The notes under the pieces were generated by a model, which was not told where the DNA came from, searched no databases, and saw nothing but the letters and a program-made list of their open reading frames with translations. Positions 9,075-62,352 of a DNA stretch of 64,000 nucleotides are shown piece after piece; the first letter of the stretch is position 1, and the number at the start of each line of letters is the position of its first letter. Both the position numbers and the translations under genes were made by a program. This DNA comes from an uncultured Acidobacteriota bacterium (GTDB lineage Bacteria > Acidobacteriota > Blastocatellia > RBC074), in NCBI GenBank assembly GCA_963796275.1, contig CAWCKY010000006.1, forward strand, positions 2,336,001-2,400,000. Direction: 5' to 3'.

Positions 9075-9138
9075 GAGTTCCGCCTTCAGGCGGTCAGAAA
9101 CTACATGCGGAAGGAAAGACCGCGTAAACGCGGAACTC
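9075..9138. repeat. REP-like inverted doublet
   Basis: GAGTTCCGCCTTCAGGCGGTC ... GACCGCGTAAACGCGGAACTC; each half is a small hairpin and the halves are inverted copies. Confidence 0.7.
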
Positions 9139-17529: not shown

Positions 17530-20193
<2,664 letters not shown>

Positions 20194-40274: not shown

Positions 40275-40319
40275 GATCTTACCTCTTAACCTTTCGAAAA
40301 AAACCGACGCCGGTCACCG

Positions 40320-45900: not shown

Positions 45901-46136
45901 CTCTGCGAATCATCGGGGCGGGAATTCGAGGATATGAGGGCGTCGGCGAGGTGGTACGCCGGGCGATCGATCAGCAGATCGTCGCGCGCATCAGCCGCGA
46001 GCATGGCTTCCACACGACGCCGAATCTCCTCATCGCCTGCGGAGGCGTGCGCGAGCAATGTAGCGCGTTCCTCAACCGGGCATTCCACGGCAGCCTCAAA
46101 GAGCTCGTGAATCTTTTGCCAGCGTTCCGGACTCAT
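42921..46136 (-). CDS. Hanks-type Ser/Thr kinase with TM segment and TPR region
   Basis: GRGGMGTV, ALK, HRDIKPEN, DFGLAK, GTVNYMSPE; TM helix; TPR repeats. Confidence 0.95.
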   Translation of the reverse strand: MSPERWQKIHELFEAAVECPVEERATLLAHASAGDEEIRRRVEAMLAADARDDLLIDRPAYHLADALISSNSRPDDSQSFSDEVIGVYRLIKELGRGGMGTVYLAYDTRLRRRAALKLLPSPLVDNPERVRRFYREAHAASALNHPNIITIYDFGRENGRDYIASEFVEGHTLRNCINNPGHSLNQILDLVIQVASALAAAHAAGIVHRDIKPENIMLRPDGYVKVLDFGLAKLSEPESGENKINTDTQTSLDFETRAGVVMGTVNYMSPEQVRGEKVDWRSDLFSLGVILYELITWNRPFGGETWHHTMVAITDAPTPPIAGVTPGAPAALQNIIDRALAKKREERYQTAHALLDDLKTVQVSLAMDVRIQGIESENAQIVTATDGSNYRMAIRIAETSIKGARDKMSDAVLSMTARTRTLLIVAIAIMILATVAAAYLYLGGGLIPNRPALTDKDMILLTDFVNTTGDAVFDDTLKQGLMVQFEQSPYFNILSEERARETLRLMERPPDEKILREVGREICQRRGIKALLVGTIASLGRNYVITLEAINSQTGEAIGHQQIEAEGKEQVLWALGQASTAMRKQLGESLASIRKYDAPIEQATTPSLEAFKDFTIGADFRRKGQYAQSILAFKRAIERDGEFALAFVQLGASYRDLRKLALGNEYLERAYQLRERASERERLEISATFFRYITGELDKRIGTTALLTQTYPQESHGFHLHGNSLMIAGEYAQAEEAYRTVLRLDPDFSLSRANLALALIGLNRFDEAQEVIHQGAARHLDSSGFHNRLYLIAFLKDDGQAMRRQIEWFDGRPDEYQIREIEARSFAFAGRRREAGESFMEAAALAEARGLLSEKARILANEANLSAILGLTQLAKKQTARVLSLLEKKSIADEELEPSLIQQLDSQPLAWTLALCGEAALAQSLSDNLARKHPLDTMYNSVWLPLIHATMELTRGSAAGPDKAIQLLQPARQYEAAIFFKPVWIRGQALLQAKNGALAAAEFQKIIEHRGWDAISPLWPLAHLGFARAAALDGDAAKSRQAYEDFFRLWKMADADLPVLIEAKKEYVRLK

Positions 46137-46710
46137 GTTTCGCAATCGAATGGTTCAACTCTGTTTGCAACCATGCGCGGGCAGCGCGCCATCCACGTTC
46201 GACCGTGGGAGTCGAGATGCCCATGACATGAGCTGTCTCTTCAATCGTCAATCCGCCGAAAAAGCGAAGCTCGACGATTCGGCTTTTTTGCGGATCGACC
46301 TCAGCCAGGGTTTCAAGCGCCCCATTGAGCACAAGCATATCCACAACCTCTTCCTGCACGATGTTCGCTGCAGCCGTGAGAGAGATATGCTGCAGGTCAC
46401 CGCCGCGTTTGAGCCTTTGCCGCGCACGCGCGTGATCCACCAGGAGCTGGCGCATTAACCTCGCCGCGATGCCGAAGAAGTGCGCGCGACTCTCCCACGG
46501 GACCGATTGCTCGACCAGCCTTAGGTAGGCTTCATTGATCAGTTCGGCGCTTTCGAGCGTGTAGCCGGCGCGTTCACCGCGCAGTTGACGACGCGCGATC
46601 CGGCGCAAGGTGTCATAAACGAGTGGGATCAATTCGTCGCGTGCCGCATCATCGCCCCGGCCCCATGCGAGCAGCAAGTGAGTCATGTTTTCAGATACGG
46701 GGGTATTCAT
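46096..46710 (-). CDS. ECF sigma factor of the kinase-associated type
   Basis: LIPLVYDTLRRIA, LINEAYLRL, RAHFFGIAARLMRQLLVDHAR, VELRFFGGLTIEETA, WRAARAWL. Confidence 0.93.
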   Translation of the reverse strand: MNTPVSENMTHLLLAWGRGDDAARDELIPLVYDTLRRIARRQLRGERAGYTLESAELINEAYLRLVEQSVPWESRAHFFGIAARLMRQLLVDHARARQRLKRGGDLQHISLTAAANIVQEEVVDMLVLNGALETLAEVDPQKSRIVELRFFGGLTIEETAHVMGISTPTVERGWRAARAWLQTELNHSIAKHESGTLAKDSRAL

Positions 46711-47061
46711 CGTAACCAGCCAAGACACGCTGAGCTTTTTCTGCCGGTCATTAAATCATGGAGAATGAGTGATCATTAACCAGTGCCGCGCACCGGCAGA
46801 TTATGCTCCATAGTTTAGAAATAAGACAGGCATCAATTCAATTCTCTAATCTTAGTCTGAGAATTCAAAAAGATTTCGCTTGATGATGGAGTTTTAGGGC
46901 GAATGACGCATATTAAACTGAGAGCCTAATATAATTTCGCCGACACGATGGCCGTTTACTCGGCAGACGCCGCCATCCGCTCGCGGTAGTATTCGATATT
47001 GCATTCGCAGAAGAGATCTACGCCGGCGCCGAAATGTCTCCCGTTTCGCAAAGGAGTGGTC

Positions 47062-48424
47062 ATGAGAAAATCCCCCGCGTCCTTCGATCCCGCCACAGCC
47101 GGGATCGGTCATGAGCTTTACCGGATTCTGATGGAGAGTATAAATGAAGCCGTCTTTGTCATTGATCCTCACGACTTCAATCTTCTGGATGTGAATCAAA
47201 AGGCTGTCACGCTCTTGGGGTACTCGGTCGACGAGATGCTGGCCCTCGACATGGGCCGCCTTCTTCCCGAGCACGGTCTCCGACTGCGGGCCGCCGCCCA
47301 CAACGCCGAGCCGTTGATGATCGAGGAGGGACTGAGGGCGAAATGCGGAAGGGCCATCCCCTGCGCCCTGACCATTCGGGCCATCAACCATTCCGCTCGT
47401 CCCATGGCCCTCTTGATCGCCCGCGAATCGAAGGTGGAAGTTTGCCTCTCATCTATAAATCTTGCGGCGGGGCGCGAAGACCTCGTCGAAACGACGTTCG
47501 CTTTCCCAAGCATTATCGGGCAGAGCTCCCAGATTCGCCATGTTTGCCGTTTAATCGGGCTGGTGGCCCAAAGCGATGCCACGGTCCTCATCCAGGGCGA
47601 AAGCGGAACTGGGAAAGAGTTGGTCGCTCAGGCCATCCATTTTCATAGCCGTCGTGCGGAACGGCCCCTGATCAAGGTCAATTGCGCGGCGCTCACTGAA
47701 ACCCTGCTCGAAAGCGAATTGTTCGGTCACCGGAGAGGAGCTTTCACCGGAGCCATTCAAGATCGGAAGGGCCGGTTCAAGCTGGCTGACGGCGGGACCA
47801 TTATTCTGGACGAAATCGACAGTCTTTCACTTTCGGGCCAGGCCAAATTGCTGCGCGTTTTACAGGAGAGAGAGTTCGAGCCGGTCGGGGATGCCGCCAC
47901 GATCAAGGTCGACGTTCGCGTCGTCGCTGTGACCAATGCGGGATCTGACCGGGGCCATCGTCGCCGGCCGATTCAGAGAAGATTTGTATTACCGGCTCAA
48001 TGCTTTTCCGATCCGGCTCCCGCCGCTGAGAGAACGAAGAGATGATATTTCATCGCTGGTCAGCCATTTTTTGCGGAAATATTCAACCTCGCTCAGGAAA
48101 CAGATCGCCGACCTCGAGCTAGAGGCTCTGGCCATGCTCATGGACTATCCCTGGCCGGGCAATGTGAGGGAGCTTGAAAACACGATCGAATATGCCGTCA
48201 TCCTGGAGAGAGGGCGGAGCTTGAGCGCCGCCAGTCTGCCGGACAAACTTAAGCATGAGGAGAGACCGAACCACTCGCTGAAAGACCGCCTCGAAACCGC
48301 AGAGAAGCAGATAATCCTGGAGGCGTTGAGCATTACCAACGGAGTCAAGCAACGCGCGGCTGCGCTGCTCGGGATCGACCGCCGCAACTTCGGATATTTT
48401 CTCAATAAACATGGCATCAGGTAA
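47062..48424 (+). CDS. Sigma54-dependent enhancer-binding protein (PAS-AAA+-Fis HTH), one frameshift near 47938
   Basis: PAS region; GESGTGKE, ESELFGH..GAFTGA, LLRVLQE in ORF 46999-48045; continues as FREDLYYRLN, WPGNVREL and HTH in ORF 47936-48424. Confidence 0.9.
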
Positions 48425-48940: not shown

Positions 48941-50494
48941 CTATCGCAGCGCTTCGGTCAGGAGTAGTTGATCGACCTGCAGTGTGATATGTAACCCGCT
49001 GTGCCGATGCAAAATTCCAACGAAACCGGTATCAGGTTCGACGCGAGTTGTGTCGCCGTTGATGCGCGCCACCACCTCATCCCCAAATCGCAAGACGGCA
49101 GTCGTTTGCCGGGTTCCTATTCTGATCAGATCGAGCTTCCACGTGACTGTTTTACCCAGTTCAATTTTTCCCTCGCCCACGTCGATTCTTTCCCTGAACA
49201 AGCCGTTCGCGCTTCGGATCCGAACTCCTGCCGCAAATTTCCCGCCTCCGATCTTACGCAGGCAGGCGGCGGCTATCAGATTGTTGCCCGCCAGGAAGGC
49301 GAGAGGATGAATTACCTGGTCTCTCCCCATCCCCAGTTCCGTGGGATTAATATCCGCCTCCAGACGCCAGGACATGCGGCGGGCAGGCAAGGCGAAGCTC
49401 AACCCCGCACGGATCAATCTCCCTGGCAAACTACCGAGGTCCTGACAGAGCATATCCACTGAACCGCTTAGAGGGTTGGTGTTATTTGCCTCGCAAACAT
49501 TGCCGGATAGGAGGATCAATTCCCAATCCTGCGGCGGAAATATCCGGTCTTCGAAATCTATATTGCTGTCGACGGGTTCTTCGCCGGCTTTGCGTTCGGG
49601 CAGAGGGAACTCAGCGCGCTCCAGTTTCCCGTTCTTAACATCCAGGATATTGAGTTTTACGAATTTTTCATCTTGTGGAATGTCCTTGACGAGCACTCCA
49701 TAGTGCAGTTCGAGCAATCCTTCTCCCTTCATATTGGATTTCTGGTACCCTTCTATGGCGATTCCGTCCTTGAAGGCTTTATCGTCTCCCTTATCGCTAT
49801 CGATGGTCGCCCGGTCATCGAAGTTGACGTGAATGCTACGGGGCGCGCCGCCGTCGCCTCTCAATTCCACTTCAACAGCCTGCAAATCGCCCTCCCGCCG
49901 GTCCAGGGCTTCAAAGAAGAGCCTGATCGCCCTTTTTTCAATACCGTTGTCGGAGTAGAAATTCGTACGGTCAAGACGGGGCGTTTTAAAGTTGGCTTTG
50001 TTGATGTACGGCAGGTAATGCAGAGGGTGAACGCTGCTATCCTGGTTGGCCTCCCCTTTCCTGAACTCCATGTGTAGATGGGGATATTCCGCATCTTCCT
50101 GACCCACCGCGCCGATCAGGTCGCCCTGGTTCACCTCTTTGCCGACGATTATTCCCTCCACGATGCTGTCGAGATGAAGATAGACGAGAAATAAGTCATT
50201 CTCCCCATCCGTCGGATCGACAGCTTGAATGATTATATGAGTGGAGCCGAATCCCCCATCCGCCGGGCCGGCGCGATGCACCACGCCACTCGCCATGGCA
50301 TAAATCGGCGTGCCAACAGCGGCAGGCAGATCTATGCCGTCGTGAAAGTCCCAGCGATCGGCGTCTATCCGCGGACCGAAGGAGGTGTTCATCTCGTCTG
50401 CCGCGAAGCTTTTGCTGAGGGGCCAGATGAAATGAGAGTGGCCTTGAGCACAGCCAGATACGTGATGACCATAGTCTCTTGTTTCGTTATCCAT
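48941..50494 (-). CDS. M23 metallopeptidase with C-terminal beta-rich domains, no signal peptide
   Basis: SFGPR..FHDGIDL, GTPIYA, YLHL, HLHME; GGAGG RBS. Confidence 0.88.
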   Translation of the reverse strand: MDNETRDYGHHVSGCAQGHSHFIWPLSKSFAADEMNTSFGPRIDADRWDFHDGIDLPAAVGTPIYAMASGVVHRAGPADGGFGSTHIIIQAVDPTDGENDLFLVYLHLDSIVEGIIVGKEVNQGDLIGAVGQEDAEYPHLHMEFRKGEANQDSSVHPLHYLPYINKANFKTPRLDRTNFYSDNGIEKRAIRLFFEALDRREGDLQAVEVELRGDGGAPRSIHVNFDDRATIDSDKGDDKAFKDGIAIEGYQKSNMKGEGLLELHYGVLVKDIPQDEKFVKLNILDVKNGKLERAEFPLPERKAGEEPVDSNIDFEDRIFPPQDWELILLSGNVCEANNTNPLSGSVDMLCQDLGSLPGRLIRAGLSFALPARRMSWRLEADINPTELGMGRDQVIHPLAFLAGNNLIAAACLRKIGGGKFAAGVRIRSANGLFRERIDVGEGKIELGKTVTWKLDLIRIGTRQTTAVLRFGDEVVARINGDTTRVEPDTGFVGILHRHSGLHITLQVDQLLLTEALR

Positions 50495-50585: not shown

Positions 50586-50885
50586 CTAGCACCAGAGATC
50601 CTGGATAAACTGGCTCTTCCCGCCATTCATGTCCCTGGGGCCGAATGGAATGAGACCTTCACCCGTCATTTTATCGGCAGCCTTGCCTTGATTGGCGTTT
50701 GCCACGGCATCCCACTTGGCTATGAAGTCCGAAACATCCCAAGTTGCTACGCTTGTCTCGGCGACGCCGAGATCATGGGACCACAGACGGCGCCGGAACT
50801 TTGTCACTGCTTCCGCGTCGTCGAGCATCACATGTTCAAATACTTCAGGCTGTACACCCCCAAATGTTCGGTCATAGATATACAT
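50586..50885 (-). CDS. Short, possibly truncated protein with the cluster leader MYIYDRTFGG
   Basis: ATG at 50885 within ORF 50586-50951; leader resembles that of the 53038 gene. Confidence 0.5.
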   Translation of the reverse strand: MYIYDRTFGGVQPEVFEHVMLDDAEAVTKFRRRLWSHDLGVAETSVATWDVSDFIAKWDAVANANQGKAADKMTGEGLIPFGPRDMNGGKSQFIQDLWC

Positions 50886-50960: not shown

Positions 50961-51689
50961 TTATCTGAAAACCCATCGGAATTCTCGTATTTTGGGCTTC
51001 GGCTTATTCACAGTTGGATCTTCCTTCAGAAGTCTTAACCGCTGGAGGTCACTCAAGAACAGGCGTTTGTCGCTGTTTTCGAAATCGATATCGACGTGCA
51101 GCGGAAAAGGGTTTTTCATCAATCCTTGCGCACTGTGCTGTAAACGGTTGCCCAGATGGCCGATTTCGTGAGCTATCGTATTGACAAATGCACGCCACAG
51201 GTCGCCAGTGGCGCCGCCGGAAACCTGGTGCGTTTTGATGAATCCGACCTTTCTATATCCATCACCTGATGGAATTCCGCAGCCTAGGGTACCCATTTCA
51301 TCCCAACACGTTTTGGCAAGGTCGTAGAAATCCTGCCCCCGTATGGTTTTCGGAATCTTGTGTTGTGTCATTAGTTTCAGGATGGTCCCGGGGAGATGCT
51401 GCCTACCGAGTAAGTACACGGGAAAATCGAGTTTTCCAAACCCGCCCTTCTCGTCGTCGGAAGGTTCATTTGACCGGTATTGCGCCTGGAACCTGATATT
51501 CGCCTGCTTCAACCAGTTCGGATCCAGGTTATTGAACTTATCCTCCAATTTTGACCGGATCTCCTCGCGAAGCTTATGATCATTTTTAAAGATACCAGCC
51601 GGGTCGATAAGAATGATACGAACAAAATCCGGTTGTCTCGCTTGGGGCGGTTGCCCTAGCCGTTCATAAGCCCGAACATACATAGTCAT
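50961..51689 (-). CDS. Zincin/metzincin-like metallopeptidase with cluster leader
   Basis: AHEIGHLGNRLQH...GLM (HExxH, third His, Met-turn); N-terminus MYVRAYERLGQ. Confidence 0.75.
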   Translation of the reverse strand: MTMYVRAYERLGQPPQARQPDFVRIILIDPAGIFKNDHKLREEIRSKLEDKFNNLDPNWLKQANIRFQAQYRSNEPSDDEKGGFGKLDFPVYLLGRQHLPGTILKLMTQHKIPKTIRGQDFYDLAKTCWDEMGTLGCGIPSGDGYRKVGFIKTHQVSGGATGDLWRAFVNTIAHEIGHLGNRLQHSAQGLMKNPFPLHVDIDFENSDKRLFLSDLQRLRLLKEDPTVNKPKPKIREFRWVFR

Positions 51690-51749
51690 TGTCCTTCCCT
51701 CTCATAACTTGCCAGATCACCTCGCCACGCAAATTGAGTCTGACTCGCA

Positions 51750-51910
51750 TTTAACATGGAAGTCATAGCGCGCAGCGTCGATCCGCGGACCGAAAGAGGT
51801 ATTCATCCCATCTGCTACGAAGCTCTTGCGGAGGGGGCCAGGTGAAATGTGAGTTGCTTTGACCGCAACCAGATACTTGCTGACGATAGTCTCTTGTTTC
51901 ATTACTCAAT
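51750..51910 (-). pseudogene. Truncated duplicate of the M23 gene 5' end
   Basis: NETRDYRQQVSGCGQSNSHFTWP / KSFVADGMNTSFGPRIDAARYDFH versus NETRDYGHHVSGCAQGHSHFIWPLSKSFAADEMNTSFGPRIDADRWDFH; similarity also visible at DNA level. Confidence 0.8.
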
Positions 51911-51973: not shown

Positions 51974-53038
51974 TCAAGGCCACTTCTTCACTACCTCGTC
52001 GATCACTCGATAGACGTTGATGACATCGCCAATCACGTCGGGGTTGGCGTCCGGATAGTTTTGCCATACTGCGACGAAAGGAACGCCATTGCGGTCAAGG
52101 AAGGCGCCTTCAGATTTCACGGAACTCACCTTGGCATCTACGCTGGGATGGTGACCCACCTTGGCACCCTTGCTGGTGAAGGAGAGCGTATTCGCATTCG
52201 TCGCCAGCGAGAGCCAGGAGCCGCCTCTGGACATGATTTCCATCATCTCCCGGCTGCTCGCCTGATCGACGAGCGTCCCGCGATGCATCGCCGCGAATAG
52301 TCTGGCCATGGCAAGTGCAGTCATGGCCGCCGATGACTTACCATTAGTGTCGACGGGAACATGGAACTGCTTCCAACCGCCACCGAGGTCGTTGGCGTAC
52401 CAGATGCCTCTCTTTGATTTCGGATCGAAGAATCTACCAGCGGTAAGGGCACCGTTCACGTAACTGTAACCAAGACGGCGCATACAGTTGCGCGCCGCCC
52501 AATCCTGCAGCTGATCTGCAAAGATGGCATCGAGATCTGCGCGATGCTGTTGCTTGAAGTCGAATTTGAGCACTCCGGAATCGCTCGTTGCGGCAATCCT
52601 CAATGTCTCGTCGATATTCATCTTCTTCCAGGGGCCGTCAGGAATCGACGGGACGGCCGCTGCGACCGCGGCAAAGAAGGGCTTCCAGTCCCAAGCTACG
52701 GTCGGAGCCAGGTTGTTGAGCCGTGCACGCAGTTCGAAACTCGCATACAACAGCGCCACCTTAAGAAGGCTGGCGGAGAAGAGCATGTGATTCTCTTTTT
52801 CGCCGGCATACCTCAAGGGATTTCCGCCGGTCCCTAGCTTTGCGATAGCGAACGCGACCTTTTCCAATCGTTGTTGATCTTTCAGACTCAATGTTCTCTT
52901 CACGGCGCGGATGGCTTCGGTCAGGTCCTTCGTGCGGGTTGGGTCGGAGACCATCTGTGGGCCATACGCCCGGTTGGCGAACGGTTCGACGGCCGACAAG
53001 CTTCCCAACCCTTGAAATTTACTATCGTAGATGAACAT
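51974..53038 (-). CDS. Serine beta-lactamase/PBP-like hydrolase with cluster leader, no signal peptide
   Basis: SASLLKVALL (SxxK), RRLGYSYVN, TALAMARLF, AKVG (KTG-like); N-terminus MFIYDSKFQGLG. Confidence 0.8.
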   Translation of the reverse strand: MFIYDSKFQGLGSLSAVEPFANRAYGPQMVSDPTRTKDLTEAIRAVKRTLSLKDQQRLEKVAFAIAKLGTGGNPLRYAGEKENHMLFSASLLKVALLYASFELRARLNNLAPTVAWDWKPFFAAVAAAVPSIPDGPWKKMNIDETLRIAATSDSGVLKFDFKQQHRADLDAIFADQLQDWAARNCMRRLGYSYVNGALTAGRFFDPKSKRGIWYANDLGGGWKQFHVPVDTNGKSSAAMTALAMARLFAAMHRGTLVDQASSREMMEIMSRGGSWLSLATNANTLSFTSKGAKVGHHPSVDAKVSSVKSEGAFLDRNGVPFVAVWQNYPDANPDVIGDVINVYRVIDEVVKKWP

Positions 53039-53060: not shown

Positions 53061-54425
53061 TCAGGGCCTCACGCCTTGCCTTTGCTCCAGCGTAAGCCCA
53101 TTCTCAAGAAAGCTAACAAAATGATCGACGACCTTCTCCATCTCCGGAGAATCTTTCTCGATCATCTTATCTACTCGCGCACGTTTGATTGGTTCGGGCC
53201 CCTGATATAATTGACCGTTAAACCGCAAATAGATCAAATATTGATTGGTGTAATAGGCGATTGTTTGCCGAGCCTGCTTGGAGAGCTTGGGAGTCTGCTG
53301 ACCTGGAATTAGCGCTAGCTCCGCGATGCCTCTTTCGTTCCTCGAGTTAGCAATGAATTCGTGAAATCGGCGAAGGCTTTTCTTACCATAATATGCATTA
53401 AGATTCTCTGCTAAAGAACGTGAGTGATCGTAGGCGCTTCCGACATTAATCCCGTCGATATCTCCTATTAAATCAGATCGACTTGCCTCCTTCACGAGGT
53501 AATACTCGAGTGTGAGCGGATCATGTTTGTCTATAGCGTTCCCGGCTTTGTCGGTCGCCAGCCAAAAATGCCGGATAAAAGCATGGAGGGCGCTACCCAG
53601 ATCACCCGACCAAGTTACGATTAAATCTGGTCGGTGTGGTTTGGGCAATTGTTGATCCTGATCAGGCTTCTGTTTTGGCGAGCCTTCAATTCCACAAAGG
53701 ACATGCCCTATTTCAAGCAGTTCTCCATTATCATAGAGTATTTTGTAGAGTCGGAGCCGCTCTTCTGCGGGGCTATGAAGGGCAAAAAGCGGGCTCACAT
53801 TCCGGTGTCGATACAAGACGATATTGAATGGTCCAATAAATTGCGGTTCTCTGGGGCCGCCATGGTATATCTTCCTCACCGAGGCCAAAAAATGTAAATG
53901 GGTCTGCCATGCAGGGCGAGCCTTTTCCTCGCGGTCAACGATTGCCAGGAATCCGGCTAGATCGATTAGCTCCACTACTGCTTTGGCCACGACACTCCCA
54001 CCGTTTTTGATTCCCACTGTCACTTGTACTGTGAGATGACGAACTAAGTAAGGCTTGTAGCTCATCCAGGTGGATGTGATGAATGACCCATCTTGATTGA
54101 TAGGAACAGCACCGCCGCCAGTTATCGCGATCGGCCCACCGACCCCAACATGAGCCTCGGCCTTAGCCAACGGCCAGCGACTATGATCTAGCCCGTAACT
54201 GTAATTCCGCCGGGTTCCTGCTCCGTCAATTTGAACCCTCCCGCTTAGTTTCACCGATCCGTTATATGACGACGGCGGTGTTCTGAAGAATCCCTCGTAC
54301 TGTCCGCTACTACTCCTGGTCAAGGTAATCTCGGGAATTCCATCGATCTTGAGCTTGTCGAGAGTGAGCACTGGCGATAATTGGGGTCCTTCTCCTATTT
54401 TCGTTTCGTTAACTCGTATATACAT
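53061..54425 (-). CDS. Hypothetical protein with cluster leader; beta-rich N-half and a GHV...TWSGDLGS...DLIGDIDG domain
   Basis: GGGAGG RBS; MYIRVNETKIGE leader; conserved-looking acidic motifs of uncertain function. Confidence 0.7.
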   Translation of the reverse strand: MYIRVNETKIGEGPQLSPVLTLDKLKIDGIPEITLTRSSSGQYEGFFRTPPSSYNGSVKLSGRVQIDGAGTRRNYSYGLDHSRWPLAKAEAHVGVGGPIAITGGGAVPINQDGSFITSTWMSYKPYLVRHLTVQVTVGIKNGGSVVAKAVVELIDLAGFLAIVDREEKARPAWQTHLHFLASVRKIYHGGPREPQFIGPFNIVLYRHRNVSPLFALHSPAEERLRLYKILYDNGELLEIGHVLCGIEGSPKQKPDQDQQLPKPHRPDLIVTWSGDLGSALHAFIRHFWLATDKAGNAIDKHDPLTLEYYLVKEASRSDLIGDIDGINVGSAYDHSRSLAENLNAYYGKKSLRRFHEFIANSRNERGIAELALIPGQQTPKLSKQARQTIAYYTNQYLIYLRFNGQLYQGPEPIKRARVDKMIEKDSPEMEKVVDHFVSFLENGLTLEQRQGVRP

Positions 54426-54537: not shown

Positions 54538-55191
54538 CTACTTCGCTACGTGGATGTGGTCTCGATGTGCGTTGAGTAACTTGTCTGAAATCGCTTTATG
54601 CGGTCCCTCGCCTCGCGTCCACGGCCCGAACAGTTGCACCGGATAACCTTTCGGCTGGGCCCATCCCCCATGGGCTTGCAGGGCCTTATAAAGTTTGTGG
54701 CCCAGATTGCGTTTCTTCTCCTCCTCGACCAACCGCGCGCGCGCTTGCGGGTTGGTTACAGCCTTGGCTTTGCGCATCGCGTGGTTCCATTCGTGCGCCC
54801 ATTGGCCGATGCCTTTGCCGCCGACGGCGTAAATGTCTGCTGCGCGTCCGAAACGGTGCAGCCCCAACGTGCCGCGTTTGAGAGAGACGGTTAGCAATTG
54901 CTCGGCGCTGAATCCGTTCGATTGTGCGAATTGCTCCAGGGCCTTGCTCAACTCGCTCGCCAGCGGTGGCGTGACGAGCGATTCCTGGACCGGCGAAACC
55001 ACACGATAGAACTGGCCATTCGGGATCGGTTGCAAGTTGCTTGTCTCAGCGCTCTCCGGTTGCTGCGGAGGTAAGATCGGCACTTGAGTCTGCGCGGGAG
55101 GATGCTTCAGACGAAAGAGACGTACGGGGCGCAGACGCGCCATCCGGCCATCCGGCGTTCTGACCACTCGTGAAGGTGCCCGGCGTTTCAT
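54538..55191 (-). CDS. Peptidase M15/Hedgehog-DD-peptidase-like zinc hydrolase with basic N-terminal extension
   Basis: H-x6-D (HRFGRAAD) and HRDHIHV zinc ligands; ATGA-type overlap with the upstream gene. Confidence 0.65.
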   Translation of the reverse strand: MKRRAPSRVVRTPDGRMARLRPVRLFRLKHPPAQTQVPILPPQQPESAETSNLQPIPNGQFYRVVSPVQESLVTPPLASELSKALEQFAQSNGFSAEQLLTVSLKRGTLGLHRFGRAADIYAVGGKGIGQWAHEWNHAMRKAKAVTNPQARARLVEEEKKRNLGHKLYKALQAHGGWAQPKGYPVQLFGPWTRGEGPHKAISDKLLNAHRDHIHVAK

Positions 55192-55727
55192 CTTACGTTT
55201 CTACCTCCGAAGATTTCGTTGTACCAGTAACGCCCCAGGATTCGACCGGCGAAGGAATTGATCGGATAGTTAGCCAGATTGCTGATCGAGCGATTCCTGA
55301 GAACAAACTCGACTTTGGCGTTTTCGTCGAGCCGCACTGCCACAGGCAGGCAGTTGCAACCCCACGGATTGATGATTCTCTCCAGCCTTGTATAAGGAAA
55401 GAGGGGTTTATCATTTTGCAGAATCAACCACTCGAATCCTGGCGTCTCGATTTGCGAGTTGTCGCGCGCGTAAAGATCGGTGAATTGCGCGAAATGAGTC
55501 AGCACGCCGCAATATTGCGGATGAAGTTGAAAACTCGCCAGCACTACCTGCTCGCCTCGCGGCGGCAGATTTTCGACCGGTTTTAAGGGATCGCGGAACT
55601 GTGCGAACGGGTCAGTCTCGCAAGCATCCAGCGCGATACCGATCGATCCGCTAACATCGAAATATTCGGCGTCGAGAGGGATACCGCAGATCACACAGGA
55701 ATTGTTGTTCGACGTTTTCGCAATCAT
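55188..55727 (-). CDS. Predicted beta-sandwich structural protein (minor capsid/penton-like, inferred)
   Basis: Alternating beta-strand pattern; C-terminal PVAVRLDENAKVEFVLRN...GRILGRYW parallels the neighbouring paralogs; N-terminal CxxC. Confidence 0.55.
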   Translation of the reverse strand: MIAKTSNNNSCVICGIPLDAEYFDVSGSIGIALDACETDPFAQFRDPLKPVENLPPRGEQVVLASFQLHPQYCGVLTHFAQFTDLYARDNSQIETPGFEWLILQNDKPLFPYTRLERIINPWGCNCLPVAVRLDENAKVEFVLRNRSISNLANYPINSFAGRILGRYWYNEIFGGRNVR

Positions 55728-55730
55728 CGT

Positions 55731-57053
55731 TTATCCCGGAACCCGGCCCGTGCCGAGCATTTTGTAACCCTGCAAAACCAGGGAGAGCGTACCCGCGGGG
55801 CCGGAGAGTTCTTCGACCTGAATGCGGACCGAAGATTTGGGCTCTGACATGAACGGCTTGGCAAATGGCCGGAACGGGCGGTCGCCATTGGCGACGCCGA
55901 GCCCGGCAATGTTGTGAATCGGCTTGCTCTGGTATTCGCGCCCCGTGCTGCTGACATCAAGGCTGTAGAGAAAACTCACCTCTTCCGCAGCCACAGCGCC
56001 GGTTTCGAAGATTCTTCCCAGGGTCCCGCCGGCGACTTGATCGATCGCCAGATTGGCCGCGATGAGGCCGTTCGCTTCGGGATTGAGTTTAAACCCGCGC
56101 GTCAAATCCACTCCGCTCCTCTCCAGTCCGGCGGCTAAGGCTCCCAGCGAAATATTTGACAGTCTCACGCGCGGGATGTCGAAGACGCTGAAGGCGACGC
56201 CTAGAAGGCTCGAGGGCGAGAGACCGGTGATAAGCAGATCGCCCGGTGAGAGCAGGCCGCCGAGTTCTACCAGCTTGCCAGAAGCTGTAGCGCCTGTGGC
56301 GAATTGGAAAGGCTTATCCAGTAAAGCCGACTTTCGAATCGAGGTGCTTCCATCACTCTTCAACACGGTGAGATCAACCAGGCTGTTTTGTGAACCGTAA
56401 ATATGTACACGGTCAGTGCCTGCTGACGGCAATTGTTTGGTGGTTGGATCCGGGCCAATCACTGGCGTCATGAGTGTCGAGGCGTTCAAGGGACCTATCT
56501 CCAACTGTTGGGTGAACAGGTTATTGGTTCGATCCCAGAGGAGAAACCGGCTCTCGGGGGAGATCACCGGGACCTCCTCAGTTCCTTCCAAAACCAGAAG
56601 TAGAGTGCCATCCGATCCGATCGTCCCGCTCGTCAAAATTCCAGGCAGGGTGTTTTCGAGAACTGCGATGCCTGTGGCAGGTGGGTCGTCGAGAAGCACC
56701 AGGGCGATATCTGCGCCGGGGGCGCTGGTGATGAACAACTTGTTGATATTGCCGTTCGAAAAGAATGGGACAAAAGAGGGACTTCGCAAAAGCGTATTTT
56801 GGTTGATCACCGGCCCGAAAGTGCGCGGCGTTTGGCGTTCATCCAAGACGAGGCTATAGCCGACCGACAAGGCCACGAAGACGCCCTCGGTGCTGATCTC
56901 TACGACATCCTGCACCTTGTTGCCGCGCTGCCCCAGGAGCGTGAATTGAAAGACATAATCGAAAGGGATCGTCTTCACCGCGGGCGGCGCGTTCGTGCGA
57001 ACGGCGCCGCGTTGGGGGACCGCTCTCGGATTGGGATAACCGAATTGGCTCAT
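55731..57053 (-). CDS. Beta-sandwich structural protein with a large central insertion (spike/vertex-like, inferred)
   Basis: IPFDYVFQFTLLGQRGNKVQDVVEISTEGVFVALSVGY...TGREYQSKP...GDRPF...LVLQGYK, paralogous to both halves of 57101-58513. Confidence 0.65.
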   Translation of the reverse strand: MSQFGYPNPRAVPQRGAVRTNAPPAVKTIPFDYVFQFTLLGQRGNKVQDVVEISTEGVFVALSVGYSLVLDERQTPRTFGPVINQNTLLRSPSFVPFFSNGNINKLFITSAPGADIALVLLDDPPATGIAVLENTLPGILTSGTIGSDGTLLLVLEGTEEVPVISPESRFLLWDRTNNLFTQQLEIGPLNASTLMTPVIGPDPTTKQLPSAGTDRVHIYGSQNSLVDLTVLKSDGSTSIRKSALLDKPFQFATGATASGKLVELGGLLSPGDLLITGLSPSSLLGVAFSVFDIPRVRLSNISLGALAAGLERSGVDLTRGFKLNPEANGLIAANLAIDQVAGGTLGRIFETGAVAAEEVSFLYSLDVSSTGREYQSKPIHNIAGLGVANGDRPFRPFAKPFMSEPKSSVRIQVEELSGPAGTLSLVLQGYKMLGTGRVPG

Positions 57054-57100: not shown

Positions 57101-58513
57101 TTAACGAAGAATCTTGTATCCCTGAAAGACCAGGAAGAGACGGCCCCTTCCGAAGATCTCTTCCACCTGCACGCGAATGGTCGAACGCGGCAGAAATGTC
57201 ATCGGTTTATGGAAGACCTTGAATGGGCGGTCGCCGTTGGCGATGCCGAGGCTGGCGACGTTGAAGGCGCGCTGGCTCTGCAACTCGCGGCCGGTTCCCG
57301 TGTCAATGATTGAATAGAGGAACCGAACCTCCTCCGGACGGTTCACGCTCTGGAACAGTCGCCCCAACAAATCCCGGCTCACCGTATTCAACTGGCCGCC
57401 GGCGGAGAAGGCGAAGCGCACGCGTAACGGATCGAGCCGGATCCCGTCGAAGAGGGATTGTACGGGTTTGATTTCTCTTAGTTTGATTTCGCCCAGTTTG
57501 AATACATCCGGATTGACCGGGTCCGGTTGGGAGTCGATCTCGATCCTGGTGTCGCCTGCGTCCAGGCTGTAGCCTACCGCCGTCGCGACATAACCTCCGT
57601 CGACATTGATCGGAACTTCGTCTTCGAGGATGTTTCCCGGTTGCCCGGTCAAATCGAGCGTCGAGACATAATCGAACGGCACGATGCGCGTCGAGGGCGC
57701 GTCGTGCTCAATCGCCTCGCCGAGCGGCCGATAGTTGCCCGTTTCGTGATCGTAGACCGGTATCTTCTTGATCGGCTCGAACTCCGCCAGCCGCCGAGTC
57801 TCTTCTTCCGCCGCCCCCGCCAGGCCGAGCACTTTGTATCCTTGCAGCGTGATGAAGAGCCTGCCCGTTACACCTGCCGTCCGCTCTTCGATCTGCAATC
57901 GAATCGTCGATCGTGGCAGGAAGACCATCGGCTGCGGCAGCATTTTGAACGGCCTCCGCCCGTCGGCGCGGCCCAGCGTCGCCAGGCTGTCCACCGGCTT
58001 GTTCTGCAACTCGCGGCCGGTTCCGGTGTCGACCAGGCTGAGCAGGAAGCTGAAATTGTCCACCGGCTTCAATCGCTGAAAAAGCTTTTGCCTTAGCTCC
58101 TGGTTCAAAGGCAAACTTGCATTCAAGCCGCCATTTTCCGATATGAGAGCGCGCAAGTTCGGATTTAGTCTGAACCCTTCGATCAGCACATCGGGGGGCA
58201 GGTTTGCTAGCTTGACATCGCCGAGGGTGGCCAGGGTAATCGGCGTGGCTGTGGTGTTAGTGGCTGGGGAGGGAACCAAGTCGACCTTCTCTGCGCGCTC
58301 TTCCGCCAAGCCGTAGCCGACGGCTGTAGCGACGAAGACGCCTTCGGCGCTGATGTTGATCACGTCCTGAACGAGGTTGCCGACCTCTCCCCTGAGCGTG
58401 AAGTCGGCCACGTACTCGTAGGGGATGACGCGCGCCGCCGGCGCGCTATGCGACTGTTCGCGACCGAACGAATTGGCGCCCCTCGGCGGATTGGGCTGAG
58501 CCATGCGGTTCAT
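57101..58513 (-). CDS. Protein with two tandem copies of the same beta-sandwich domain (double jelly-roll-like, inferred)
   Basis: IPYEYV...VATAVGY...DTGTGRELQ...RPFK..PM.FLPRSTIR.Q.EE...QGYK occurs twice. Confidence 0.7.
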   Translation of the reverse strand: MNRMAQPNPPRGANSFGREQSHSAPAARVIPYEYVADFTLRGEVGNLVQDVINISAEGVFVATAVGYGLAEERAEKVDLVPSPATNTTATPITLATLGDVKLANLPPDVLIEGFRLNPNLRALISENGGLNASLPLNQELRQKLFQRLKPVDNFSFLLSLVDTGTGRELQNKPVDSLATLGRADGRRPFKMLPQPMVFLPRSTIRLQIEERTAGVTGRLFITLQGYKVLGLAGAAEEETRRLAEFEPIKKIPVYDHETGNYRPLGEAIEHDAPSTRIVPFDYVSTLDLTGQPGNILEDEVPINVDGGYVATAVGYSLDAGDTRIEIDSQPDPVNPDVFKLGEIKLREIKPVQSLFDGIRLDPLRVRFAFSAGGQLNTVSRDLLGRLFQSVNRPEEVRFLYSIIDTGTGRELQSQRAFNVASLGIANGDRPFKVFHKPMTFLPRSTIRVQVEEIFGRGRLFLVFQGYKILR

Positions 58514-58608: not shown

Positions 58609-59508
58609 CTATTGCACGTCGCGCGTCATGTACCCATCGAGGACGACCCAAATGAAGAGCGGCCCATAGAGTCTTTGCAGATCGCTCAGCACTTCGCTCT
58701 CCGGTACTTCGATCTCGACGCGGAAGTTCTGTTGCGCATCGATTTTCACCGCCTCGGCGAAACGAAAGGTCGCTTGTGGACTCGGATAGCCGTGCGTCGT
58801 GACCCTGCCGTCCTCCGAATATGGGCCGGCGCCGGCGGGGAAGAACCACGTCGGAACCTGAATCATGATCTTCTCGCCGACGAAGAAGGTGGTGACGGTG
58901 TTATAGATGAACTTGCCGATCAGCCCGCCGAAACCATTATTAGGGAAGATCTGTTCTTTCGCCGGAATGATATCTTTCCCGAACTTATCCACCGCCTCTT
59001 TCAATGTCGTGCGGGTGATCTCGGCCAATTCATCCGGGGCCAGCGGCTGCGTTGTTGTGTCCGGTGGGATCGCCGTGACTGTCAGACCGAGATTCTCCAA
59101 CGCGTCGAGTGACAGCCGGAGCGCCTTTATCTCCGAGCTCTCAACCCGGCGTGTGAACTCCACGAAATGCGTCAGCTTGAAGTTGCTCAGCTCCACTTTC
59201 CTATTGCCCACTGGTTGCCCGGCGCAGTCGACGACAACTACTTCGAGTTTGATGGTAGCGCTCTCAGAGACCACCGACGGCAAATCCGAGATCACCACCC
59301 GCAGCGCATGCGCCTCAAAAGTGTTCCAGTGCGGCAACAACGACGCAGCCTGCATGTTCGTCAACAACTTCGTCTTTCCCGTTACATCCTGAAAGAACCG
59401 TAAAACGTTGGATGTGAGAATCTCGCCCAATCTTCTCCCCGGTTTGATTGCGACAGCATCATATAACTGCTGATGTACTAGCTCTCTGACTCCTTTGACG
59501 ACAGCCAT
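58609..59508 (-). CDS. Putative major shell protein (single jelly-roll capsid-like, inferred)
   Basis: Strong AGGAGG RBS; GVRELVHQQLYD...LRFFQ..GKT..TNMQ...FPAGAG...G.PSP...AVKIDAQQNFRVEI...VVLDGYMTRDVQ resembles, from recall, hypothetical capsid-like proteins of tailless viruses; not verified. Confidence 0.55.
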   Translation of the reverse strand: MAVVKGVRELVHQQLYDAVAIKPGRRLGEILTSNVLRFFQDVTGKTKLLTNMQAASLLPHWNTFEAHALRVVISDLPSVVSESATIKLEVVVVDCAGQPVGNRKVELSNFKLTHFVEFTRRVESSEIKALRLSLDALENLGLTVTAIPPDTTTQPLAPDELAEITRTTLKEAVDKFGKDIIPAKEQIFPNNGFGGLIGKFIYNTVTTFFVGEKIMIQVPTWFFPAGAGPYSEDGRVTTHGYPSPQATFRFAEAVKIDAQQNFRVEIEVPESEVLSDLQRLYGPLFIWVVLDGYMTRDVQ

Positions 59509-59525: not shown

Positions 59526-60392
59526 CTACCAGAGCGGTTGAAACCAACCGCTGCGGGATTTGGATTGTTCTTCCGCAGGGCGGATGTTTTCGCAGGTCGG
59601 GTTGATTGTCCTCGGACGCTGGTAACCCTCGACGCCGTTGATGTTCTCCAACGGTACGACCCGCGGGTTGATCTCCCGCTCCCGCACATAGCCTTCGACA
59701 GGGGCTTCCGCGAAATAACCCATCTCCGGCGCATTACCGTAACCCATCACTTCTGGCGCTTCGCCGTAGTAGCCCATTTGATCGGGCGCTTCGGCGTAAT
59801 AGCCCATCTGATCGGGTGCTTCATAGACATAACCCATGGCTTCCGGTGCCTCTGCGTAATAGCCCATCTGATCGGGCGCTTCCGCGTAATAGCCCATTTG
59901 ATCGGGCTGTTGATAGACCTCGTTGACGCCGGCAAATTCCGGAGCTTCGGCGTAATAGCCCATCGTCTGTGGCACCTCATAGACGTAACCGACTTCCGGC
60001 GCCTCCGCGTAGTAACCGGTGCCTTCGACAAAACCCGGTGGCGGATCGGCGATATAGCCCATCCCGTGAGGCGAGCCATAACCGGAAACCTCCGGCGATT
60101 CGTAGATGTAACCGACCGTTTCCGGCGCTTCGCCGTAATACCCGACGTTCTCCGGCGCCTCGTAAACGTAGCCTACATTTTCCGGTACTTCATAAACGTA
60201 ACCGAGAGGCTCCGGCGCCTCGTAGACATAGCCCATCTGATCAGGCACTTCAGCGAAGTAACCCGAGATCGTGGGAGCCGGGCATCTACGCTTTCTCGCT
60301 CCTGGCTTGGGTATTGGATAGAACCGCATGCGTTTTCCTCCTTGCTGTGGTATTGGATTGACAATCATGATTTCATCGAAATGGCCTGCCAT
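59526..60392 (-). CDS. Acidic Gly-Tyr decapeptide-repeat protein (GYYAEAPDQM-like, about 19 units)
   Basis: GAGGAGG RBS; basic N-terminus, repeat core, C-terminal WFQPLW. Confidence 0.85.
   Translation of the reverse strand: MAGHFDEIMIVNPIPQQGGKRMRFYPIPKPGARKRRCPAPTISGYFAEVPDQMGYVYEAPEPLGYVYEVPENVGYVYEAPENVGYYGEAPETVGYIYESPEVSGYGSPHGMGYIADPPPGFVEGTGYYAEAPEVGYVYEVPQTMGYYAEAPEFAGVNEVYQQPDQMGYYAEAPDQMGYYAEAPEAMGYVYEAPDQMGYYAEAPDQMGYYGEAPEVMGYGNAPEMGYFAEAPVEGYVREREINPRVVPLENINGVEGYQRPRTINPTCENIRPAEEQSKSRSGWFQPLW
59700..60265 (-). repeat. ~30-bp coding tandem repeats
   Basis: e.g. GCGTAATAGCCCATCTGATCGGGCGCTT recurring on the + strand. Confidence 0.85.
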
Positions 60393-60403
60393 ATTCTGCC
60401 TCC

Positions 60404-60718
60404 TCATCCTTCAATCCCGCGCTTTGTCACCCGGTATCGACCGCCGATGATGTATAACCGCCTGCCTGTCGGATCGGCGGCCAGGACGGGAAATTGCTGC
60501 TCGAAGAAATGAACATAGTTCTGCGGAACTTCTCCGGGCGCGCGGCTGGCACGATAGATCACTCCGCGCAGTTCTCCGAGCGGCATTAACGGCGGCGCCA
60601 ATCGGATTATCCGCAGACGCCTGGTCTCGCATGCGCAACCCGAACCGCATCCGCAGGACGAGCCACAGGCGCAATCCGAACCGAATTGTGGTTGGGAACA
60701 ACCGCAAGCACACGACAT
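60404..60718 (-). CDS. Small protein: Cys-rich N-terminus plus YVHFF...LYIIGGRY.V..RGI domain
   Basis: AGGAG RBS; MSCACGC...CACGSSCGCGSGCAC. Confidence 0.75.
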   Translation of the reverse strand: MSCACGCSQPQFGSDCACGSSCGCGSGCACETRRLRIIRLAPPLMPLGELRGVIYRASRAPGEVPQNYVHFFEQQFPVLAADPTGRRLYIIGGRYRVTKRGIEG

Positions 60719-60728
60719 GACTCGACTC

Positions 60729-61310
60729 CTAGCGGAACCTCCGAACTGGAGCGCCCGGCGGCGCCGGAGCGGCTGGCTGCGGCGCGACTGTGCCCGGCTG
60801 CGCCTGGACCCCTTTTCTCGCCCCACGGCGGCGGCGAGGCCGAATGACGACCGGGATGCTCATCCAGACCGGGCGCAGGTATTGCTTGACCTGACCTGAT
60901 TCGCCGATCCCTTCAACGACTTCATAGAGTTGCCCGTCAGGCGCCTGCATTATTCCGTCCTCCGCGCCTGCCAGCCCAGCCTTTCCGAGGATGCTGCAGA
61001 GCTTGGTCCCGATTTGGTAGACCGGCTTCAGCTCCACGCTCTGTTCGGCACATGGGGCTAACTTGGGCAGGCCCTGGCAGAATCCCTTGACGGCCCCTCT
61101 CACTTGTTCGATCACCGGCCCGATCCCCGGGATGAATTTGACGGCTTTGCCGGCCAGTTTCTTGATCCCTTTCCAGAAGCCGATGTCGTTCCCCAGGCCA
61201 TCGACACCTTCCACCCATTCGTATAGCTGTCCGTCCGGTCCCGGGCGGACTTCGCCAACATAGTTGCCGATCCCCAGGACCTGTGTCGTCTCGTAAGATG
61301 CAAAAGGCAT
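60729..61310 (-). CDS. Hypothetical protein with duplicated PDGQLYE motif and a cationic amphipathic segment
   Basis: AGGAG RBS; GPDGQLYEWVEG / APDGQLYEVVEG; GFWKGIKKLAGKAVKFIPGIGP; Arg/Pro-rich tail. Confidence 0.8.
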   Translation of the reverse strand: MPFASYETTQVLGIGNYVGEVRPGPDGQLYEWVEGVDGLGNDIGFWKGIKKLAGKAVKFIPGIGPVIEQVRGAVKGFCQGLPKLAPCAEQSVELKPVYQIGTKLCSILGKAGLAGAEDGIMQAPDGQLYEVVEGIGESGQVKQYLRPVWMSIPVVIRPRRRRGARKGVQAQPGTVAPQPAAPAPPGAPVRRFR

Positions 61311-61320
61311 AAGTCTTCTC

Positions 61321-61848
61321 CTAATCAACCGGAAAATACTGTTTGTGATCTGCCGGCGGCGCCCAACCCATCGAGCGATTGACCGTTGCATCGAGCGGAA
61401 TCCACCGACCTTTGTAAAAAACTTCGAGATAGATATGCGTGAATAACTTCTTCTTCATTGGATTGAATCCAACGAGTACCAGGCGCACCGGATGGCCGAT
61501 AGACTTGAGCATAGAGGAAAGAAGGATCGTCATATCGTCACAATCGCCTGCGCGCAACTCCAGCATCCGTCTCGCCGTGTGTAGAAGCTCGACACGATGA
61601 ATATCCCGCGTGTATCGAACATTGCGTCTCACCCACTCGAAGAGGGCGTGGATCTCCCCCAGATAGTTTTTCGGCCGGATGTCGCATTGGCGCAGAATCT
61701 CGATCGCCGTTTGCCGAACGCCAAAGTCTTTTGCGCCTGCCCTGACCAGATGCGCAATCAACTCGACGGTCTTGATTGTTCCCGGATAGCCTTTGGGGAT
61801 CCGGCCGATGAAGATACGGGGCTGTGTTGAATTCGAGCATTTGTGCAT
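61321..61848 (-). CDS. Transglutaminase-like (Cys-His-Asp) enzyme, probable protease
   Basis: LFEWVRRNVRY, GDCDD, THIYLEV, WIPLDAT; ATG at 61848 downstream of the sigma54 promoter. Confidence 0.88.
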   Translation of the reverse strand: MHKCSNSTQPRIFIGRIPKGYPGTIKTVELIAHLVRAGAKDFGVRQTAIEILRQCDIRPKNYLGEIHALFEWVRRNVRYTRDIHRVELLHTARRMLELRAGDCDDMTILLSSMLKSIGHPVRLVLVGFNPMKKKLFTHIYLEVFYKGRWIPLDATVNRSMGWAPPADHKQYFPVD

Positions 61849-61892
61849 CGCCTTCTCGTTCTTTTGAATGTTCCTGACACCGTGGATAGAGG

Positions 61893-61908
61893 GCAACTGG
61901 AATGCCAA
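61893..61908 (-). promoter_or_regulatory. Sigma54 (-24/-12) promoter
   Basis: Minus strand TTGGCATTCCAGTTGC: GG-N10-GC with TGGCA and TTGC consensus halves, about 45 bp upstream of ATG 61848. Confidence 0.75.
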
Positions 61909-62352
61909 TCGGGGAAGAGTCGTGGAATATCGACATATCTCTAGCGAGAAAAAAGGGTTGACGCTTTGAGCCCGAGAGTTTTAATAGAGAAGGGAAGATC
62001 GCGGAGTCATAATCTCTATGCGTCTCTCCGTGTGTCGACAGACCGGCGGGATGTTGAAGATGTTGCGGCAGTGAGGTTTGTGCGGGCGCATAAAAATCGC
62101 CGGGCCCTCAAAATGATGAGCGATCTATCGAACATAATTCTGGAACCTGAATTATTATATCGGGCACAGATCGCCCACGGGATATTGCGGGATCAGGATC
62201 GGGATCGGGAATGCACCGAAAGCTTCTCCTTCACCGAAGGAAAAGGTTTTGCGACGACTTGATGAAGTTGTGGAGCTGGTGGTCGAGACTGTTGAGGTGC
62301 TGAATAATGTCGACCCTGGTTGCCATCTAAAGGAGAGAATCAATAAATCACA

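Follow-up and report, generated by a model that had tools for sequence, protein, structure and literature searches.

A putative sigma54 promoter, a candidate enhancer and a linked activator gene at an operon of jelly-roll proteins and hydrolases in an uncultured Acidobacteriota bacterium

The window, i.e. the whole 64,000-nt stretch of DNA that was analyzed, contains on its minus strand an operon of ~13 kb that runs from 61848 to 48453 and whose core genes are all intact. The gene block is conserved among 26 homologous loci, which were collected in one scan of GTDB genomes with an alignment of the 470-aa operon protein (the scan covered GTDB species representatives and was limited by the search pattern). 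The record titles of these loci name Acidobacteriota, KSB1, Nitrospirota, Pseudomonadota, Chloroflexota, Actinomycetota and other groups; the titles of L002 (Heliobacteriaceae) and L008 (Enterobacteriaceae) are possibly mislabelled and were given no weight. The features of the operon and its surroundings are the following:

62006-62022 (no strand): candidate upstream activator sequence, a type A palindrome (TCATAA-N3-TTATGA) 115 bp upstream of the -24 box
61893-61908 (minus): putative sigma54 -24/-12 promoter box, TTGGCATTCCAGTTGC, with GG and GC 10 nt apart
61881 (minus): predicted transcription start (G), placed by its spacing from the -12 element
61321-61848 (minus): first gene, transglutaminase-like cysteine protease fold (GDCDD...HIY; PF01841, E = 2e-13)
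60729-61310 (minus): core gene 2, glycine-rich, no family found
60404-60826 (minus): core gene 3, no family found, real start probably later than the listed GTG
59526-60407 (minus): core gene 4, GY(Y/V)xE repeat protein with a 30-nt repeat period, possible scaffold
58609-59508 (minus): single jelly-roll, major-capsid-like protein of 299 aa with an insertion (AF2 model)
57101-58513 (minus): tandem (double) jelly-roll protein of 470 aa (AF2 pLDDT 76, Z at most 8.7)
55731-57053 (minus): paralogous jelly-roll protein of 440 aa with a large, spike-like insertion (paralogy from sequence and tblastn)
55188-55727 (minus): conserved core gene of 179 aa, probably a small jelly-roll
54538-55191 (minus): core gene 9, no family found, present in part of the loci
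53061-54425 (minus): cargo gene with MYIR leader, no family found
51974-53038 (minus): cargo gene with MFIY..GLG leader and a serine-hydrolase (Beta-lactamase2) domain
50961-51683 (minus): cargo gene with MYVR..LGQ leader, HExxH metallopeptidase-like (weak, E = 0.009)
50586-50885 (minus): small cargo gene with MYIY leader
48941-50494 (minus): M23 peptidase gene without leader, recurring in L008, L016, L022 and L023
48453-48851 (minus): stand-alone REC (receiver) gene, partly degenerate; a REC gene stands ahead of a downstream activator in six homologous loci
47062-48424 (plus): PAS-AAA+(GAFTGA)-HTH sigma54 activator of clade A, with a +1 frameshift at ~47940-47942 and inverted relative to its homologues

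Sigma54 promoters carry GG at -25/-24 and GC at -13/-12, 10 nt apart. A box of this kind, which the initial annotation had placed just upstream of the first gene, was confirmed at 61893-61908, in sense orientation and 59 nt upstream of ATG 61848, with 9 of 10 consensus bases present. It is the sole TGGCA-N6-TTGC in the window and the sole site there with at least 13/14 on our consensus score (consensus TGGCAC-N5-TTGC). Considered alone over 64 kb, the box is not above chance (0.56 expected; 44 of 100 shuffled sequences have one), and it is significant because of its position before the first gene rather than its mere occurrence: the chance of such a match in a given 100-nt upstream stretch is ~3e-4, and local shuffling gave p = 0.002. 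The predicted +1 G at 61881 would leave a 33-nt leader before the ATG, and the box is separated from the ATG of a divergent amidase gene (62353) by 444 bp, in agreement with the ~440 bp of intergenic space annotated initially. A scan for sigma70 promoters revealed no enrichment (6 found versus 9.6 expected) and nothing convincing for the operon. A 195-aa ORF with a TTG start inside the box was rejected as an artefact of the ORF finder; the homologues support ATG 61848. In section 7 of PMC3162934, a sense box within ~300 nt upstream of a start codon is given as the positional criterion, and the box of the window lies within this distance.

Conservation at homologous loci, proposed with the initial annotation as a check of the box, was scored in 22 of the 26 loci, as the upstream region is absent from L007, L010, L013 and L026. 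A box of at least 12/14 is present within -100 to -20 of the first gene in 13/22 homologues (14/23 with the window included), compared to a background of 2/23 on the antisense strand and 1.4% of random 80-nt windows, so the box is conserved in position. The boxes are placed at -41 to -74, and weaker ones occupy the same position in five more loci (L003, L004, L008, L015 and L021). Over 19 sites no variation occurs at G-24, A-22, T-14 and G-13, and the spacer is unconstrained, a pattern that is partly circular because the sites were picked by consensus score. As judged from sequence, the box is very probably the sigma54 promoter of the shell operon.

Four of the 22 loci (L016, L017, L019 and L020) have no credible box, and sigma54 control of the module is therefore not universal. 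The box was scored from the first gene; the start of L020 is approximate, and rescoring of its whole intergenic region gave 10/14 at best. The two Chloroflexota loci, L019 and L020, have a BTAD regulator upstream, L016 has LuxR/REC genes upstream, and L017 belongs to Actinomycetota. Upstream of the L019 operon, TAATCCAAT occurs as a direct repeat, 11 bp apart, a pattern typical of SARP binding sites. The start of the operon also varies in gene content, as a small extra gene of ~80 aa stands ahead of the protease gene in five loci and a different small gene in the two Chloroflexota loci:

L011 869-1108: ~80-aa gene heading the operon
L012 300-542: ~80-aa gene heading the operon
L014 5940-6158: ~80-aa gene heading the operon
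L022 ~5894-6139: ~80-aa gene heading the operon
L024 2055-2300: ~80-aa gene heading the operon
L019 5041-6394: BTAD (SARP-type) regulator and the different small gene ahead of the operon
L020 4968-6400: BTAD (SARP-type) regulator and the different small gene ahead of the operon

The conserved ~80-aa heading gene is confined to loci that combine the clade-B activator with enhancer B, both described below. Leader-bearing genes lie upstream of the protease gene in L004 (5629-6051) and L017 (297-1067), which makes the promoter assignment less sure in L004 (box 10/14). According to the relevant part of PMC3162934, sigma54 is absent from Actinobacteria and present in only some Chloroflexi. Replacement of the regulatory cassette in lineages that mostly lack sigma54 does indicate adaptation to host transcription.

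A Gibbs search for an upstream activator site was run on 13 loci, with the window held out and two groups assigned by eye beforehand. Enhancer A, learned de novo, reads ATCATAA-N3-TTATGAT (IC 16.4 versus ~11 for shuffles), and enhancer B, found in five other loci, reads CCGGAAA-n-TTTCCGG (IC 18.1 versus ~13 for shuffles). For the enhancer-A matrix trained without the window, 62006-62022 is the top site in the 64 kb, and in leave-one-out analysis the upstream site ranked first within its locus in 11/14 cases (0.15 expected). The sites form a proximal cluster between -101 and -127 and a distal one between -175 and -210, and many homologues have a second site near -190 to -210. The 115-bp spacing in the window fits the ~80-200 bp expected of sigma54 enhancers; its site scores 14.4, below most homologues. 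The sites show weak helical phasing (p about 0.04), and there is a modest enrichment of IHF-like sites (14/19 versus 7.2 expected; the best match in the window is 6/9). Neither in the window nor in the homologues is the activator or REC gene preceded by an enhancer-A site above 8.0 or a box of at least 13/14 that could indicate autoregulation; read-through feedback is possible where the REC and bEBP genes are co-directional at the operon end.

The initial annotation described a PAS-AAA+(GAFTGA)-HTH activator at 47062-48424. All of its domains are present, namely PAS (PF13188/PF00989), Sigma54_activat with GAFTGA and Walker A, an AAA lid and HTH_8, but they do not form one gene, a point that the initial annotation missed. 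They are distributed over two frames, 47062-48045 (which ends in out-of-frame junk) and 47936-48424, that meet at position 143 of the Pfam profile, and alignment with the homologues shows a single additional base within a G run at ~47940-47942. A continuous frame joining AAA+ to HTH, absent in the window, is present in 114 of the 119 top homologues, and as written the window activator cannot yield an HTH-bearing protein. The three closest homologues are intact (457-460 aa), with identities of 84-91% before the break and 91-92% after it; since they are equally similar on both sides, the frameshift is, as read from the alignments, most likely a long-read assembly indel or a very recent lesion. 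No other consistent break occurs in the 14.4 kb of the window that homologues cover. The reported convergence of the activator with the operon end holds for the window itself and is peculiar to it. In the homologous loci, each of the 14 bEBP genes points in the same direction as the operon (7 upstream and 7 downstream, none convergent), which marks the convergent closing as a local accident. DNA alignment to L001 shows the activator of the window flipped relative to its REC neighbor, and a search for inverted repeats bounding the activator, which might explain the inversion, found none.

These lesions raise the question of whether the switch is dead in this genome, with the activator a true pseudogene after local inversion and the operon either silent or controlled by an unlinked clade-A activator. 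We consider this rather unlikely. Besides the frameshift and the unique inversion, it is favored by the duplicated 5′ remnant of the M23 gene at 51717-51904, a further decayed gene with several frame changes at 17.5-20.1 kb and the low score of the window enhancer (14.4), and the presence of long intact genes elsewhere in the window (1222, 1074 and 1055 aa) indicates that indels are not frequent there. However, the extra base lies in a G run, no second lesion accompanies it, identity is as high after the break as before, nearly all top homologues (114/119) are contiguous and the core genes of the operon are all intact. The contig of the window is 2.93 Mb long, and similar splits occur at other long-contig loci, L018 and L022. 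We therefore prefer to read the frameshift as an indel or a very recent lesion.

Several neighboring features were noted in passing. An ECF sigma factor and a Ser/Thr kinase-TPR pair (42921-46728) are divergent from the activator; the activator of L015 also adjoins an ECF-kinase pair, which is probably a common neighbor type in Acidobacteriota. An ABC permease gene of the FtsX/MacB type at 17530-20110 is split into several frames beside two intact paralogues and is either a decayed pseudogene or locally poor assembly. A TonB-dependent receptor gene fragment at 40286-40810 resembles the C-terminus of 27230-30397.

Linkage of an activator to homologous loci, the second check suggested initially, was found as well, with a bEBP gene within 10 kb (fetched DNA) in 13/26 loci and several of the remaining loci on short contigs. 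Both checks turned out in favor of the initial annotation. The L011 contig ends in an HTH fragment, and L008 has a box and enhancer A, yet a bEBP is absent from its fetched 10 kb despite a full flank. The nearest relatives of the window activator are operon-linked activators (69%/76% to L001). An indirect sign of linkage also comes from metagenomes, where 10 of 40 long contigs of the top activator homologues are equal in size to shell-gene contigs (0.06 expected). Two upstream activators, L003 1407-2384 and L004 4303-5256, have no N-terminal sensor domain, and L004 has a second, PAS-bearing activator downstream. The phospho-Asp of the stand-alone REC protein is retained in 4/7 copies.

A coincidence, in which the box would match by chance and the activator would be an unrelated neighbor, is highly improbable. 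One strict match per 64 kb is expected (0.56), bEBPs are common in such genomes, and the activator is convergent and 13 kb away, all of which would fit a coincidence. The position of the box in 13/22 homologues, the first rank of the held-out enhancer in 64 kb and the operon linkage of the nearest activator relatives argue against it, and box conservation together with the held-out enhancer effectively refutes it.

The linked activators fall into two clades (100/100) with distinct recognition helices. Clade A occurs with enhancer A in 10 loci and clade B with enhancer B in 4, with no crossover, a covariation that amounts to only 2 independent contrasts (sign test p = 0.5); L023 and L025 are near-copies. 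From these sequence patterns, it is in all likelihood the linked activator that pairs with the enhancer. Four changes of regulator type (minimum two) map onto the shell-gene tree, on which neither the enhancer-B loci (p-AU 3e-5) nor the Acidobacteriota loci (p-AU 6e-107) form one clade. L025 has shell genes near-identical to those of L022/L024, with a different regulatory cassette. Promoter, enhancer and activator are a dedicated cassette that moves with the shell genes and is swapped as a unit. As the module carries its activator and enhancer along, sigma54 dependence is evidence of a self-contained cassette and not, in itself, of wiring into the host. The cassette would borrow host RNA polymerase-sigma54, and a mobile element could carry one too. 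In the initial claim that the module is wired into host regulation and hence domesticated, the first part does not follow from sigma54 control by itself, since the activator travels across phyla, and the second part is probably right, mainly on other evidence.

Part of this evidence is provided by the cargo zone. An N-terminal leader, M(A)[YF][ILVMT] (the MY[IVL]..LG type), is present in 54/90 cargo-zone frames and 7/228 controls (21 loci, zones drawn by hand). Leader frames usually have a Shine-Dalgarno sequence, and 48/54 contain a motif of the [LFI]G type within 30 residues. When scored with a model trained on the 50 leaders from outside the window, the four leader genes of the window ranked 1, 2, 3 and 6 of 122. 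The cargo Pfams comprise Amidase_2, M15, M23, M74, VanY, Extensin-like, PG-binding, OmpA, trypsin, M35, patatin and lipase_3, with up to seven interchangeable leader-tagged genes per locus, lipases and proteases included. The leader (M-Y-[IVL]-x...LG[QE]) is a sequence-based candidate for a loading or cleavage signal. A duplicated 5′ remnant of the M23 peptidase gene at 51717-51904 is 81-85% identical to 50343-50489; it is a scar of recombination in the cargo zone, and L023 has a similar duplicate.

Among the core proteins, the first gene product retains its transglutaminase-like catalytic motif in 20/22 homologue hits and is possibly a maturation protease. Searches of the core-gene families against PHROGs, NCBIfam, PADLOC and PDB sequences gave nothing beyond the transglutaminase domain. 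The AF2 model of the 299-aa protein (pLDDT 71) matches jelly-rolls at Z of at most 7.2, and its nearest Atlas clusters are 86-100% viral at 0.97. The capsid-like protein has 2137 homologues in environmental data, in 229 clusters at 50% identity with many fragments. The 470-aa protein has weak Foldseek matches to the PRD1 P3, PBCV-1 and SGIV (iridovirus) capsid proteins, and PDB matches of the jelly-roll models include portoglobovirus and sphaerolipovirus entries (6oj0, 6h9c and 3zmn). Foldseek against BFVD returned only weak capsid-type matches with poor TM-scores, and in VIA-align no named capsid family stands out. The structural matches at Z 7-8.7 are in a range common to non-viral, cellular jelly-rolls, and with moderate confidence we take the scores of these models to indicate the fold and not a shell. 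In L005, L006, L008 and L009 (~8660-9990), a second, longer capsid-like paralogue with a large insertion follows the first.

With regulation unchanged, the jelly-roll proteins could instead build a surface or secreted scaffold (a fibre, lattice or spike complex) on which the hydrolases are displayed, or a compartment inside the cell that serves its own wall remodelling or lysis. Matches of equal Z to non-capsid jelly-rolls (PHM, nucleoplasmin, GOLD domains, Tc-toxin receptor-binding domains, FlhE and Ena fibres) are compatible with this reading, as are the bias of sigma54 regulons to the cell exterior described in part of PMC3162934 and the finding that no immunity genes were identified beside the hydrolases. 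We nonetheless judge it unlikely: the paralogous single and double jelly-rolls, the protease and the repeat protein together look like a block for virion morphogenesis, the closest look-alikes are viral clusters and, at a low 0.75-0.77, the PM2 P2 and PRD1 P3 families, and the common leader is not a Sec/Tat signal by eye. The reading that we favor for the product, at somewhat better than even odds, is a domesticated jelly-roll particle that contains no genome and is loaded with peptidoglycan hydrolases, proteases and lipases bearing the leader.

Viral resemblance also raises the possibility that the module is a provirus, or a satellite, of a small tailless virus of the jelly-roll type. Its late operon would then use host sigma54 and an element-encoded activator, its hydrolases would serve as lysis or entry enzymes, and its replication and integration would depend on genes beyond the fetched flanks or on a helper. 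The nearest Atlas clusters are 72-100% viral or mixed, and the patchy spread over at least six phyla, with Acidobacteriota loci not forming one clade, implies that the module moves. In small jelly-roll viruses a packaging ATPase may be missing and an integrase is found only sporadically, as described in part of PMC5894146. L016 adjoins a serine recombinase and tRNA-Gln. In opposition to this, a scan of 262 ORFs from flanks and cargo zones (all 116 listed upstream and 146 of the 191 listed downstream) found no conserved integrase, replication or packaging gene, although ~11 loci show both ends with unrelated housekeeping flanks. In the window there is no integrase, att site or replication gene, and none is conserved across the 26 loci. 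A search for an FtsK/A32 packaging ATPase in 23 operon spans gave no Pfam match and no convincing Walker-A ORF. No att-like repeats, tRNA or Rfam elements were found at the window module, and tRNAs occur in only 2/25 loci scanned. A tblastn search gave 0 matches in 50,697 cultured phages and 0 in 72,556 plasmids. Up to seven leader-tagged genes per locus exceed a lysis cassette, and no description of sigma54-driven phage late genes was found in the open-access literature. We regard a provirus as improbable. Since conserved integrase, replication and packaging genes are missing and the hydrolase cargo is leader-tagged, the module is probably domesticated. As separate observations, a serine recombinase, a DDE transposase fragment and tRNA-Gln are located ~4 kb upstream of the L016 operon (730-2440), which may sit in a genomic island, and IS transposases lie near L016 and L018.

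Sigma54 promoters need activators of the bEBP type and give tight on/off control: a closed sigma54 complex is contacted through a DNA loop by an enhancer-bound AAA+ oligomer and opened by ATP. For the operon, sigma54-RNA polymerase would wait on the box as a closed complex, and the module's own PAS-bEBP would bind TCATAA-N3-TTATGA ~115 bp upstream, loop to the holoenzyme and open the promoter by ATP hydrolysis via its GAFTGA loop. The signal would enter via the PAS domain, perhaps together with the small REC protein, and one promoter would turn on shell genes and cargo together. In other loci, the alternatives would be the clade-B activator with CCGGAAA-n-TTTCCGG, or BTAD or LuxR regulators where the box is absent. 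We infer in this way transcription, the identity of the enhancer-binding protein, the signal, particle assembly, cargo loading and an antibacterial role. Taken as a whole, a sigma54 cassette that drives a domesticated shell and cargo operon is the best explanation of the locus and a likely one. The system is testable, as an intact or PAS-deleted activator in excess should turn on the whole operon. Somewhat below even odds, we place the broader proposal of a widespread, undescribed class of domesticated tailless-virus-type particles that carry interchangeable antibacterial hydrolases, leader-loaded and protease-processed, and that are released via a PAS-bEBP/sigma54 switch. The capsid-like family is common in environmental data, yet just 26 loci were found in GTDB species representatives by the pattern-limited scan.

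The regulatory logic is of a known kind, on an apparently undescribed jelly-roll operon; no description of the operon or its regulation was found in the open-access literature. In the Vibrio T6SS, the bEBP VasH, which acts with RpoN, is encoded in the cluster (as given in part of PMC10482370), and in the Pseudomonas H2-T6SS Sfa2 acts with RpoN and cannot be replaced by Sfa3 (as given in part of PMC8855297). As in these systems, to the extent that they are described there, structural genes and antibacterial hydrolases of the module would be controlled by sigma54 and a cluster-encoded, cluster-specific activator. Unlike T6SS, the structural genes are jelly-rolls, and the window has no tail, sheath, baseplate or membrane-complex families (searches for T6SS/eCIS tube, sheath, baseplate and spike families gave no Pfam, PHROG or NCBIfam matches); the activator is of the PAS type with a stand-alone REC partner, and the cargo has a common short N-terminal leader. 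Encapsulins, as outlined in part of PMC8346489, also combine a virus-like shell in a chromosomal operon with cargo that bears a short targeting peptide; in the module the counterparts would be the jelly-roll proteins and the N-terminal leader, a candidate targeting peptide. Encapsulins have the HK97 fold, mostly one shell gene and metabolic cargo, whereas the module has several jelly-roll genes, a protease, hydrolytic cargo and sigma54 control. Both modelled proteins are beta-sandwich jelly-rolls, and no encapsulin Pfam match was obtained.

Single and double jelly-roll proteins are shared with the Odin group, FLiP and PM2, viruses in which lytic enzymes are sometimes present; the Odin group and FLiP have no packaging ATPase (as stated in the part of PMC5894146 that concerns them). 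None of the terminal repeats, nucleases, polymerases or integrases described there for tailless jelly-roll viruses is conserved in the module, and no report of a bEBP or enhancer cassette on such viruses was found. A sigma54 box alone is ordinary; what is notable is the conservation together, across phyla, of the box, a new enhancer and an operon-specific activator clade. eCIS, tailocins and GTAs are domesticated chromosomal virion modules that spread horizontally, with lineage-specific regulators and variable cargo after a conserved core. The module resembles them in its conserved core, variable downstream cargo and lineage-specific regulators and differs in being based on jelly-rolls. To our knowledge, the known domesticated virion modules (T6SS, eCIS, tailocins, GTAs and encapsulins) all derive from tailed or HK97 phages. 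If the proposed reading is true, a regulated, genome-free jelly-roll particle would extend domestication to the other major capsid lineage and would stand beside tailocins, eCIS and encapsulins as their jelly-roll counterpart, and the promoter, enhancer and activator needed to switch it on would already be known.
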